Below are positions 9,490-17,539 of a stretch of 64,000 nucleotides of DNA, one piece after another. Under the pieces are notes generated by a model. It was not told the origin of the DNA and searched no databases. It worked only from the letters and a program-made list of their open reading frames with translations. The stretch lies in sequence record OP557970.1; one strand, written 5' to 3'. The DNA comes from Escherichia phage ph0021. Position 1 is the stretch's first letter; each line of letters begins with the position of its first letter. The translations under genes were made by a program, and so were the position numbers.

Positions 9490-12630
<3,141 letters not shown>

Positions 12631-12658: not shown

Positions 12659-14638
12659 ATGACTTTATTATCTCCGGGCATTGAGCTCAAAGAAACCACG
12701 GTTCAAAGCACCGTGGTTAATAACTCTACTGGTACAGCAGCTTTGGCCGGTAAATTCCAGTGGGGTCCTGCTTTTCAGATTAAACAGGTTACAAACGAAG
12801 TAGATTTAGTTAATACTTTTGGTCAACCTACAGCTGAAACTGCTGACTATTTTATGTCTGCGATGAATTTCTTGCAGTACGGAAATGACTTACGAGCAGT
12901 TCGTGCTGTTGATAGAGATACCGCTAAAAACTCATCGCCAATTGCTGGTAATATTGAATACACAATTTCTACCCCAGGTAGTAACTACGCGGTTGGAGAT
13001 AAAATCACGGTCAAATATGTTTCAGATGATATTGAAACTGAAGGTAAAATTACTGAAGTAGACGCAGATGGAAAAATTAAGAAAATTAATATTCCTACTG
13101 CAAAAATTATCGCTAAAGCGAAAGAAGTCGGTGAATATCCGGAATTAGGTTCTAACTGGACTGCGGAAATTTCTTCGTCTTCCTCTGGTTTAGCTGCAGT
13201 AATAACTCTTGGAAAAATTATTACTGATTCTGGTATTTTATTAGCTGAAATTGAAAATGCTGAAGCTGCTATGACAGCGGTTGACTTTCAAGCAAATCTT
13301 AAAAAATACGGAATTCCAGGAGTAGTAGCGCTTTATCCAGGCGAATTGGGCGATAAAATTGAAATTGAAATCGTATCTAAAGCTGACTATGCAAAAGGAG
13401 CTTCTGCATTACTCCCAATTTATCCGGGCGGTGGTACTCGCGCATCTACTGCTAAAGCAGTGTTTGGATATGGACCACAAACTGATTCACAGTACGCTAT
13501 TATAGTTCGTCGCAATGATGCTATTGTTCAAAGCGTTGTTCTTTCAACTAAGCGTGGTGAAAAAGATATTTACGATAGTAACATCTATATCGATGACTTT
13601 TTCGCAAAAGGCGGCTCAGAATATATTTTTGCAACTGCGCAAAACTGGCCAGAAGGCTTCTCTGGAATTTTAACTCTGTCTGGTGGATTATCATCAAATG
13701 CTGAAGTAACAGCAGGAGATTTGATGGAAGCTTGGGACTTCTTTGCTGACCGTGAATCCGTTGATGTTCAGCTGTTTATTGCGGGTTCTTGTGCCGGTGA
13801 ATCTTTAGAAACAGCATCTACTGTCCAAAAACACGTCGTTTCAATTGGGGATGCTCGCCAAGATTGCTTAGTATTGTGCTCTCCTCCGCGTGAAACTGTA
13901 GTTGGAATTCCTGTAACTCGTGCTGTTGACAACTTAGTCAACTGGAGAACCGCAACAGGTTCATACACTGATAATAACTTTAATATCAGTTCAACCTATG
14001 CAGCAATCGACGGCAACTACAAATATCAGTATGACAAATATAATGATGTGAATCGTTGGGTTCCATTAGCAGCTGATATTGCCGGTTTATGCGCAAGAAC
14101 TGATAACGTATCTCAGACTTGGATGTCTCCAGCTGGTTATAATCGTGGTCAGATTCTTAACGTTATTAAACTTGCTATTGAAACCCGCCAGGCTCAGCGC
14201 GACCGTTTATACCAAGAAGCTATCAACCCAGTAACTGGTACAGGTGGCGATGGTTACGTATTGTATGGTGATAAAACAGCTACTTCTGTTCCTTCTCCGT
14301 TTGATCGTATTAACGTTCGTCGTCTGTTTAATATGTTAAAAACGAATATCGGACGTAGTTCAAAATATCGTTTGTTCGAATTAAACAACGCGTTTACTCG
14401 TTCATCATTCCGCACAGAAACTGCCCAATACTTGCAGGGAATTAAAGCTCTCGGTGGAATTTATGAATATCGTGTAGTTTGCGATACAACAAATAATACT
14501 CCGTCAGTAATTGATAGAAATGAGTTTGTTGCAACATTCTACATTCAACCGGCTCGTAGTATAAATTATATCCAACTTAATTTCGTCGCAACTGCTACTG
14601 GTGCAGATTTTGATGAGTTAACTGGTCTTGCAGGTTAA
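12659..14638 (+). CDS. 18: contractile tail sheath protein gp18
   Basis: 659-aa ORF, T4 gp18 length; late promoter TATAAATA 30 bp upstream. Confidence 0.93.
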   Translation: MTLLSPGIELKETTVQSTVVNNSTGTAALAGKFQWGPAFQIKQVTNEVDLVNTFGQPTAETADYFMSAMNFLQYGNDLRAVRAVDRDTAKNSSPIAGNIEYTISTPGSNYAVGDKITVKYVSDDIETEGKITEVDADGKIKKINIPTAKIIAKAKEVGEYPELGSNWTAEISSSSSGLAAVITLGKIITDSGILLAEIENAEAAMTAVDFQANLKKYGIPGVVALYPGELGDKIEIEIVSKADYAKGASALLPIYPGGGTRASTAKAVFGYGPQTDSQYAIIVRRNDAIVQSVVLSTKRGEKDIYDSNIYIDDFFAKGGSEYIFATAQNWPEGFSGILTLSGGLSSNAEVTAGDLMEAWDFFADRESVDVQLFIAGSCAGESLETASTVQKHVVSIGDARQDCLVLCSPPRETVVGIPVTRAVDNLVNWRTATGSYTDNNFNISSTYAAIDGNYKYQYDKYNDVNRWVPLAADIAGLCARTDNVSQTWMSPAGYNRGQILNVIKLAIETRQAQRDRLYQEAINPVTGTGGDGYVLYGDKTATSVPSPFDRINVRRLFNMLKTNIGRSSKYRLFELNNAFTRSSFRTETAQYLQGIKALGGIYEYRVVCDTTNNTPSVIDRNEFVATFYIQPARSINYIQLNFVATATGADFDELTGLAG

Positions 14639-14644
14639 TTGATT

Positions 14645-15283
14645 ATGGGGCTTCGGCCCCTATTCTCGAGGAAACAAGTGATTATTTCTAAGTTTGTTAC
14701 AATAAAACCAAGAAATCATTCAAAAATGTGGTCGACAATTCTGGGATATAAAGTATCATATCATGATACAGTATCTGTTCCAATAGAATTAATGCCAAAG
14801 AATAGTAATAAAATAGTTGACGCTAAATGTGATTTGTGTGGTACTAAATTTAGTAGAAGCATTCAACTTTTAAATAGAACACCCACACATGCATGTAGAA
14901 AATGTAGCATTAAACAAGTTGCTATTAAAAATTCTGAAGTTCAATCTGGAATAAGCAGACCATGGCAAAGAGGTGATAAACATCCTCGATGGACTGGTAA
15001 AAGAAAAGAGTTTGCATTATATGCTAGTAGAGTTCATTCTATAACTAAGTCAGCTAAAATAAGAAAAATCTGGTCAAAATGGCCGAATGCTGATAAAATA
15101 GGAGTGTGTGGCGTAGAAGGTGCTTACCAACTCGATCATAAAGTATCTATCAAATATGGATTTGATAATTTAATTCCGCCGGAAATTATAGCAAGCGTAA
15201 AAAATTTAGAAATAATCACTTGGGAATCTAACCGAGAAAAGTCAAAAAGAAATAGCGTAGATCTTTGGGATTTACTAGAATGA
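14645..15283 (+). CDS. free-standing HNH-family homing endonuclease-like protein inserted between genes 18 and 19
   Basis: Cys-rich zinc-ribbon segment (CDLCGTKFS...CRKCS) followed by an HNH-like core (QLDHKVSIKYGFDNL...NLEIITWESNREK). Start is ambiguous: ORF track opens at 14639 (TTG), first ATG at 14645, alternative ATG at 14726. Confidence 0.7.
   Translation: MGLRPLFSRKQVIISKFVTIKPRNHSKMWSTILGYKVSYHDTVSVPIELMPKNSNKIVDAKCDLCGTKFSRSIQLLNRTPTHACRKCSIKQVAIKNSEVQSGISRPWQRGDKHPRWTGKRKEFALYASRVHSITKSAKIRKIWSKWPNADKIGVCGVEGAYQLDHKVSIKYGFDNLIPPEIIASVKNLEIITWESNREKSKRNSVDLWDLLE
14647..14660 (+). terminator. hairpin after gene 18 (upstream flank of the HNH insert)
   Basis: GGGGC-TTCG-GCCCC tetraloop hairpin 9 nt after the gp18 stop. 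Confidence 0.4.
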
Positions 15284-15290
15284 TTCTAAA

Positions 15291-15317
15291 GGCCTGTTTC
15301 GGCAGGCCATATAAATA
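15291..15317 (+). promoter_or_regulatory. hairpin plus late promoter after the HNH gene
   Basis: GGCCTG...CAGGCC stem-loop followed directly by TATAAATA at 15310-15317. Confidence 0.5.
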
Positions 15318-15368
15318 CACTATATCCTTAATTCTTTAATTCTATATGCCCTAGGTTAAACATAGGGA

Positions 15369-15376
15369 TATAAATA
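15369..15376 (+). promoter_or_regulatory. late promoter for gene 19
   Basis: TATAAATA 15 bp upstream of the gp19 ATG. Confidence 0.65.
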
Positions 15377-15390
15377 CTACAGAGGCTAAT

Positions 15391-15882
15391 ATGTTTGTAG
15401 ATGATGTAACACGAGCGTTTGAATCTGGTGATTTTGCTCGACCTAACTTATTCCAAGTAGAAATTTCTTATCTTGGACAAAATTTTACGTTTCAATGTAA
15501 AGCCACTGCTTTACCTGCTGGTATTGTAGAAAAAATTCCAGTCGGATTTATGAACCGTAAAATTAACGTAGCAGGCGATCGTACATTCGATGACTGGACT
15601 GTTACAGTAATGAACGATGAAGCTCATGATGCTCGCCAGAAGTTCGTTGATTGGCAAAGCATTGCTGCGGGGCAAGGAAACGAAATTACTGGTGGAAAAC
15701 CTGCAGAGTATAAAAAGAGCGCTATCGTTCGTCAATATGCTCGTGACGCTAAAACAGTAACAAAAGAAATTGAAATTAAAGGTCTGTGGCCTACTAACGT
15801 GGGTGAACTTCAGTTAGATTGGGATTCAAACAATGAAATCCAAACATTTGAAGTAACTCTTGCTCTCGATTATTGGGAATAA
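15391..15882 (+). CDS. 19: tail tube protein gp19
   Basis: 163-aa ORF, T4 gp19 length; TATAAATA late promoter upstream. Confidence 0.92.
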   Translation: MFVDDVTRAFESGDFARPNLFQVEISYLGQNFTFQCKATALPAGIVEKIPVGFMNRKINVAGDRTFDDWTVTVMNDEAHDARQKFVDWQSIAAGQGNEITGGKPAEYKKSAIVRQYARDAKTVTKEIEIKGLWPTNVGELQLDWDSNNEIQTFEVTLALDYWE

Positions 15883-15887
15883 AATGA

Positions 15888-17539
<1,652 letters not shown>

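Follow-up and report, generated by a model that had tools for sequence, protein, structure and literature searches.

What kind of gene occupies the junction between the tail sheath gene (gene 18) and the tail tube gene (gene 19) in some T-even phages, and how did it come to be there? The question is raised by this locus of Escherichia phage ph0021, analyzed in a window of 64,000 nucleotides (nt) from sequence record OP557970.1. The window is a segment of a Tequatrovirus genome; over positions 14000-16000, it has 100% identity with a record titled "Pseudomonas phage PsgM02F" and 98.3% with phage T6. The gene 18-19 interval measures 752 bp in the window versus 116 bp in T4 and contains an open reading frame (ORF), ORF19.1. 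The analysis presented here indicates that ORF19.1 most likely represents a homing endonuclease gene of the free-standing type that belongs to a divergent, uncurated branch of the HNH (beta-beta-alpha-metal) superfamily. The core of this idea, an endonuclease gene of the HNH type that is free-standing and lies between genes 18 and 19, had been put forward in a preliminary description of the locus made from the sequence without database searches. It is borne out by the empty sites in T4, T2, and about 385 other Tequatrovirus records, together with an HNH-like catalytic core in the encoded protein.

The boundaries of the insertion were defined by comparison with T4 (Table 1). The 644-bp insert lies precisely in the gap that separates the gene 18 stop codon from the spacer's native hairpin, where the T4 18-19 spacer has 8 bp, TACGGTGC. 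The left border is the gene 18 stop codon, ambiguous by 1 nt (a shared T), and the right border falls at the last base of ORF19.1's own stop codon, a base that is also the first one of the right flank shared with T4. The G+C content is 33% in the insert and 39 to 40% in the flanks. The empty site is alike in all 10 insert-free loci that were read (T4, T2, and eight others), with a single substitution in G28 (TACAGTGC). A 2-kb query matched 708 records, 116 of which cover the insert, and a synthetic empty-junction query matched 538 records end to end, about 385 of them at Tequatrovirus-level identity, and another 112 in two separated pieces. The junction comparison thus confirms that the gene is an insertion into the 18-19 junction and that relatives have insert-free alleles: the boundaries are clean against T4, T2, and the roughly 385 Tequatrovirus records, and near-identical genomes show a presence/absence polymorphism at precisely these borders.

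The signals that surround the gene were also compared with the empty site. Two hairpins said to bracket the gene and two late promoters upstream of gene 19 had been taken as a promoter/terminator duplication, the footprint of an insertion event. Both hairpins do fold as UUCG-loop stems, and both TATAAATA boxes were recovered by pattern search. The bracketing, however, holds only on the 5' side, where the hairpin is borne by the insert; the 3' hairpin lies outside the insert, now just downstream of ORF19.1, and is native. Window positions 15283-15491, which cover the 3' hairpin and both boxes, are identical to insert-free T4, and the record of one insert-free phage (row H122) annotates two promoters in the 18-19 spacer. 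Because one hairpin and two late-promoter boxes are present at the empty site to begin with, nothing is duplicated, and the footprint interpretation was rejected. The insert-borne hairpin holds the position of the native hairpin in the empty allele and is conserved in the T6-type and RB3-type alleles; some GC hairpin follows gene 18 in every Straboviridae locus examined. Neither hairpin is followed by a T-run, and neither scored as an intrinsic terminator in a scan.

Several lines of evidence suggest that the element has moved. In identity matrices, the ORFs of the window and RB3 share 57% identity, against 100% for the gp19 proteins of the two phages. The window ORF groups with ORFs of Dhakavirus, Karamvirus, and Gaprivervirus (59 to 66%), and that of RB3 with ORFs from Klebsiella and Salmonella phages (63 to 64%). 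Judged from these matrices, the gene tree of ORF19.1 conflicts with those of gp18 and gp19. Junctions and leader are common to the T6-type and RB3-type alleles, which are unrelated over approximately 14696-15056, that is, in the DNA-binding module and linker, and near-identical from 15057 on. The RB3-type allele (L020, 1501-2118) is found at the same junctions in RB3, RB5, RB6, pSs-1, HY03, and others. Among eight T6-type carriers, diversity is 0.003 to 0.01 within about 250 bp of the insert and 0.03 to 0.05 in the gene 18 body, the latter equal to that of non-carriers. Given this low diversity near the insert and the varied gene 18 bodies, the element with short flanks sits in different backgrounds. 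Horizontal spread was thereby detected in a small sample (10 genera-level loci and 8 carriers). A second presence/absence case comes from another lineage, an IMG/VR trio in which L013 (2101-3000) has a family member with 33% identity immediately in front of gene 19, and its close relatives L012 and L014 (2787-3000) have a 210-bp spacer instead. The flanks of L013 are 89% identical to those of L012 and L014 upstream, on the gene 18 side, and 94 to 95% identical downstream, on the gene 19 side, a step that looks as if the gene 18 side came in with the element.

The nuclease module is found in other settings as well. In relatives, it is joined to a variety of DNA-binding domains (HTH_23, HTH_7, sigma-70 region 4, CapR, DUF7487, or NUMOD3), a manner of use that is also that of homing endonucleases. 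In Acinetobacter phage 133 (L040, HM114315; 32227-34304, minus strand), the 273-amino-acid (aa) protein Acj133p227 has the same C-terminal nuclease domain (E = 1.5e-24), and its gene lies inside rnlA, dividing it into two parts, rnlA-A and rnlA-B, shortly ahead of the KxDGS ligase motif. In GenBank, Acj133p227 carries the note "some similarity to ORF19.1 of T6". This arrangement is a case of genes-in-pieces, which is typical of homing endonuclease insertion. Such unrelated contexts are hard to reconcile with the possibility, suggested by the placement of the gene within the 17-18-19-20 block, that ORF19.1 encodes a packaging-associated HNH protein, a partner of the large terminase (gene 17) and portal (gene 20) like those known from HK97-like phages and GVE2. 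DNA packaging proceeds without ORF19.1 in T4 and most Tequatrovirus phages, and no HNH requirement is known for T4-type headful packaging. Furthermore, an extra, sequence-variable zinc-finger module fits site recognition rather than a conserved terminase partner. A packaging role is therefore considered extremely unlikely.

The encoded protein is modular: a presumed DNA-binding module with a Cys4 zinc finger at the N terminus is connected by a flexible linker to the catalytic domain at the C terminus. The CxxC...CxxC segment noted earlier is present; its cysteines (C51, C54, C73, and C76 in the 201-aa numbering; codons 14828-14905) are nearly invariant in the family. Weak matches to DUF4379, "treble clef zinc finger", occur in 15 of 39 family members, and the N-terminal module matches a PHROG annotated "homing endonuclease" (E = 1.4e-4). 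The HNH-like core proposed as "QLDHKVSIKYGF...NLEIITWESNREK" was likewise found, in the form of the conserved pattern Y150-Q-L-D-H...N176-L...W-x-x-N185-R-x-K188. Across 49 to 51 diverse relatives, only D153, H154, N176, and N185 are invariant, and the same four residues are invariant in an alignment of 39 relatives; identities in these alignments go down to about 25%. As the structural Asn, N176 of "KNLEII" is the conserved residue, rather than the Asn of "DNL". The invariant set represents the H-N-N form of the HNH motif, in which the residue roles are assigned by position only; H154 (with D153) would be the general base, N176 the residue that holds the hairpin, and N185 the metal ligand. 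A Foldseek search of the PDB with the full-length model (two domains; predicted template modeling score [pTM], 0.49) returned nothing meaningful, and the C-terminal domain was then modeled alone. In this model, the domain is predicted to adopt a beta-beta-alpha fold, a two-strand hairpin followed by a helix, like that of solved HNH nucleases, and the closest structural matches are nickases.

The family to which the protein belongs is large. With relatives counted as clusters at 50% identity, an exhaustive profile search retrieved 6,200 cluster representatives with E ≤ 0.001; 1,676 of them reach E ≤ 1e-10. The full-length protein matches PHROG 5104, annotated as of unknown function (E = 4e-82), and among PHROGs labeled "HNH endonuclease", it matches 14913 alone (E = 0.009), in the zinc-finger segment and outside the catalytic core. 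Among the C-terminal domains of 51 relatives, seven sub-threshold HNH matches were detected: four to HNH_4, two to PF01844 (best E = 1.4e-3), and one to GH-E. Two relatives bear the Joint Genome Institute (JGI) name McrA, and one contains NUMOD3. On the basis of structure, the invariant residues, and the sub-threshold matches of distant relatives, we conclude that the ORF19.1 protein belongs to the HNH superfamily, in a branch without a curated model. The failure of any curated HNH model to match, along with the Asn instead of His at the last motif position, would fit a catalytically dead DNA-binding protein, for example, a regulator built on a degenerate HNH scaffold. However, the invariance of D153, H154, N176, and N185 over relatives that are only 25 to 35% identical is the pattern expected of an active site, and H-N-N variants such as I-HmuI are active. 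We consider a dead protein very unlikely.

Table 1. Positions of the inserted gene, its parts, and the adjoining features in the window
Feature	Position	Strand	Details and basis
Gene 17 (large terminase)	end at 12627		
Gene 18 (tail sheath)	12659-14638		
Polymorphism hot spot, gene 18 3' end	14539..14590	+	Mostly synonymous, one Q/T codon; 50-100 bp upstream of insertion point
Inserted segment	14639..15282	.	644 bp; base-by-base comparison with T4
Insert-borne hairpin GGGGC-UUCG-GCCCC	14647..14660	+	Fold prediction; directly after gene 18 stop codon
Shine-Dalgarno GAGG	14668..14671	+	6 nt before GTG 14678; read from sequence
ORF19.1 coding sequence	14678..15283	+	GTG start, 201 codons, TGA stop; homologue alignment, T6 annotations
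N-terminal module, residues 1-89	14678..14944	+	Presumed DNA-binding; Cys4 zinc ribbon or treble clef; predicted local distance difference test score (pLDDT) 92-95
C-terminal HNH-like (beta-beta-alpha-metal) nuclease domain, residues 105-201	14990..15280	+	Core 15125-15241
Key codons	D153-H154 15134-15139; N176 15203-15205; N185 15230-15232		K188 also in core
Native UUCG hairpin GGCCUGU-UUCG-GCAGGCC of 18-19 spacer	15291..15308	+	Fold -12.8 kcal/mol, z -3.2; identical in T4
Two native late-promoter boxes TATAAATA	15310-15317, 15369-15376	+	Pattern search; upstream of gene 19, outside insert
Gene 19 (tail tube)	15391-15882		Gene 20 (portal) next

The extent of the coding sequence was corrected in the course of this analysis. 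An ORF does fill the 18-19 interval, as reported before, but its length is 201 rather than 214 codons. All 38 aligned homologues start with "M/V-I-I-S-K", matching GTG 14678, which is also the start annotated in both T6 records; the start codon is GTG in 7 of 10 divergent phages, and the GAGG is kept in all nine other T6-type and RB3-type loci. TTG 14639 was discarded as the start, being merely the first in-frame start codon past the gene 18 stop codon. ORF19.1 is intact in every locus read, including nine of nine T6-type loci, where it encodes 201 aa. Two T6-type alleles differ by two non-synonymous versus eight synonymous changes, and on this comparison the gene is judged to be under purifying selection and kept functional. 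A chance ORF can be excluded because of the more than 6,000 detectable relatives and this low share of non-synonymous differences. In the records of S16 (L022, 2501-3121), WL-3 (L033, 989-1594), PP01 (L034), and N2 (L037), the gene is annotated as fragments (107, 59, or 185 aa) or under unrelated names; the fragments are explained by the GTG start, the ORF being intact in all four phages. The apparent truncated copies in WL-3 and S16 were accordingly dismissed as mis-annotations. GenBank labels are mostly hypothetical protein, with some HNH endonuclease, homing endonuclease, type II restriction endonuclease, holin, and head morphogenesis protein. In 2010, a review on the mobile DNA of T4-related phages recorded nothing at genes 18/19, and the homing endonuclease gene table of a 2010 genome review lists no "other HNH" for RB3 or Acj61, though both carry family members. 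The ORF19.1 family is previously uncharacterized, and the kind of element is ordinary for T-even phages.

Several observations weigh against a homing endonuclease. No HNH match was obtained for the window protein in Pfam and NCBIfam, even at E ≤ 10. The preliminary description had expected a match to an HNH family profile and had named its absence as grounds for rejection, which, taken formally, is the outcome for the window protein. Nor did sequence searches of the PDB with the protein and two family profiles find an HNH chain; they returned C2H2 zinc-finger noise and leucine-rich-repeat matches, the latter spurious, since the pattern "P-EIG-L-NL--I-W--N" resembles the repeat consensus. Apart from the insert itself, no polymorphism was found to distinguish carriers from non-carriers, and confirmed degenerate copies of ORF19.1 are lacking, an unusual situation for an element that is purely selfish. 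Finally, family members lie directly after the tail sheath gene in all 10 full-length contexts that were read (T6, RB3, Dhakavirus, Gaprivervirus, Karamvirus, a Klebsiella phage, Gelderlandvirus S16, Serratia 4S, Acinetobacter AbTZA1, and Sinorhizobium phiM7). The protein family was found by tblastn in 240 phage records, 69 of them at ≥95% identity (T6-type) and most others below 60%.

The constant post-sheath position fits a homing lineage tied to a conserved target and also old vertical inheritance with losses. The second option, the main rival, would make ORF19.1 a resident accessory nuclease, an old 18-19 gene passed on vertically since early Straboviridae, lost in many lineages including T4, and kept for an advantage such as degrading or excluding competitor DNA, with no self-copying. 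The occurrence of the gene at one position in ten phages from nine genera or groups, among them the Emdodecavirus phiM7, would be expected under this alternative, as would an intact ORF under purifying selection and a conserved GTG start. It does not account for a gene tree that conflicts with those of gp18 and gp19, for two alleles with swapped DNA-binding modules within one genus, or for a low-diversity block around the insert amid diverse gene 18 backgrounds. Moreover, independent deletions would not recreate the empty site shared by the ten insert-free loci (one substitution in G28), and the same nuclease module appears elsewhere, splitting rnlA. Competitive exclusion and homing are compatible in T-even endonucleases. 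A resident nuclease is therefore regarded as unlikely, and a homing endonuclease gene as the best explanation.

If ORF19.1 is a homing endonuclease gene, the 3' end of gene 18 is of interest as a candidate target; the preliminary description had proposed a probable cleavage target in gene 18 or 19 of relatives that lack the insert. The 40-bp bin 14539-14578 contains 15 segregating sites, versus at most 8 in any other gene 18/19 bin. At least five haplotypes of this hot spot exist among insert-free phages, and a single one is present in all nine T6-type carriers. Positions 14539-14590 may, speculatively and from the pattern of variation, be a candidate recognition or cleavage region; target escape, repeated co-conversion, or a recombination hot spot are possible causes of the variation. 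The coding sequence of the gp18 C terminus, LNFVATATGADFDEL, is highly conserved across Straboviridae. Recognition that spans the empty junction, which is itself destroyed by the insertion, is a possibility and would be the simplest target model. Two candidate markers of the insert were rejected: the gene 18 patch haplotype is not exclusive to carriers because insert-free G28 has the identical haplotype, and the single-nucleotide polymorphism at 14611 (T versus C) is not carrier-specific because the T6-type carriers N2 and WL-3 have C. As a separate observation, the carrier haplotype has TATAAATT at 14560-14567, a 7/8 match to the late-promoter box about 110 nt before the ORF19.1 start; this sequence is absent from the T4 haplotype and is also present in insert-free G28 and TB004.

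The analysis shows the polymorphism of occupied and empty sites, the fold with its invariant residues, the shuffling of modules, and the spread into different genomic backgrounds, whereas catalysis, the target site, the choice between a nick and a double-strand break, the timing of expression, and homing itself are inferred. The gene 18 late promoter lies at 12623, and pattern search found no TATAAATA box between 12623 and 15310; neither a convincing sigma-70-type promoter upstream of ORF19.1 nor a terminator was found. Because no promoter of its own and no terminator were detected, ORF19.1 is probably expressed late, by read-through from the gene 18 promoter, and would be translated weakly from the conserved GTG. 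In a mixed infection, the enzyme would nick or cut the insert-free 18-19 region of a co-infecting relative, a nick being likelier than a cut because of the single HNH site and the nickases among the best structural matches. T4-type recombination-dependent repair would then transfer a copy of the gene, together with a few hundred bp of flanking DNA, to the empty site. A broader proposal can be put forward only tentatively: ORF19.1-type proteins may form a large uncurated HNH-like clade, one branch of which specialized on sheath-gene 3' ends in Straboviridae and beyond, in an arms race that sets synonymous escape in the gene 18 tail against swaps of the zinc-finger module.

The leaders of the gene differ among genera. 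In UP19, DK-13, EnA02, and Roth77 (L025, L026, L028, and L021, respectively), a TAnAAT-like -10 element and a perfect hairpin (e.g., GCGCGTAT...ATACGCGC) lie 60 to 70 nt before the ORF start, an arrangement similar to the promoter-stem-loop cassettes known from T4-type phages; in the T6-type leader, only the UUCG hairpin is present. EnA02 also has an extra 582-nt ORF between genes 19 and 20 (L028, 3747-4328); none of the other loci read has it, and it may likewise be an inserted gene. T4-like 18-19 sequence was further encountered in records labeled as a Pseudomonas aeruginosa phage and as the 32-kb "Staphylococcus phage SAJK-IND". Such Pseudomonas and Staphylococcus labels on T4-like records, that of PsgM02F included (OR584013, PV654520, and MG010123), probably reflect mislabeled hosts or contaminated records.

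If the enzyme is active, ORF19.1 would extend the HNH nucleases by a new branch and make the sheath-tube junction a new homing site, and it could help to explain marker exclusion and mosaicism around the tail genes in crosses of T6 with T4 or T2. Activity would also justify a profile for the nuclease domain of thousands of phage and metagenome proteins, and the natural swap of DNA-binding modules on a constant catalytic domain would offer a ready test of specificity change. The general picture is unchanged in that such elements are expected in T-even genomes.

The T-even phages are the reference system for free-standing homing endonucleases, and the closest parallels to ORF19.1 come from this group and its surroundings. 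Like MobA-E of T4, I-HmuI of SPO1, and I-TevIII of RB3, ORF19.1 is intergenic between conserved, essential genes and patchy among close relatives. The Mob/I-HmuI type also combines a nuclease with a DNA-binding module around an HNH-type beta-beta-alpha-metal core (H-N-N in ORF19.1), and ORF19.1 probably nicks. In I-HmuI and Mob, however, the catalytic domain is N-terminal, whereas that of ORF19.1 is C-terminal; this reversed order sets ORF19.1 apart from the Mob type. Its DNA-binding module is a Cys4 zinc finger, and, unlike the Mob type, it has no HNH_3, NUMOD, or Pfam HNH match. BLAST gave no similarity to Mob, as judged by record counts and not by direct alignment: tblastn with the catalytic domain (E ≤ 0.1) retrieved only 246 records, all of them family members among the matches listed, versus 538 empty-junction records, and empty-site T-even records presumably encode mob genes. 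The IPA-HNH family, with an N-terminal HNH plus AP2, was considered and set aside.

Other comparisons concern single domains or single insertions. The HNH proteins of Geobacter (Gme; PDB 4h9d) and phage GVE2 (PDB 5h0o), small nicking endonucleases of phages or prophages, have a single HNH site like ORF19.1; they are, however, only 11 to 21% identical to it, with no sequence-level match, have no N-terminal zinc-finger module, and are not known as mobile. The unclassified free-standing homing endonucleases Hef (phage U5) and Hef-like (Acj133p179 of phage 133) also belong to T4-related phages. Membership in the Hef-like group, judged on Acj133p179, was rejected: this protein (L040, 2793-4310, minus strand; between genes 23 and 24) does not match the ORF19.1 profiles (E > 10) and has a weak Vsr (PF03852) match, and the phage 133 annotators list the ORF19.1-like gene apart from the Hef-like gene. 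The nrdA gene of Aeromonas phage Aeh1, split by mobE, is a known case of genes-in-pieces produced by homing endonuclease insertion; the split rnlA of phage 133 can be likened to it, and the insertion in the window is intergenic and splits nothing. Finally, the DHHRN family (F-CphI, with the Endo VII motif) is defined by a catalytic domain in which CX2-4C and CX2C flank a central DHDH, along with a conserved Arg and Asn (PMC6083498). Like ORF19.1, its members are homing endonucleases of T4-like phages with a C-terminal domain of the beta-beta-alpha-metal type and CxxC pairs. Membership of ORF19.1 in this family was considered and rejected: its core reads LDHKVS, residues 105-201 contain no Cys pairs, and the Cys4 lies about 75 residues upstream, in a separate domain.

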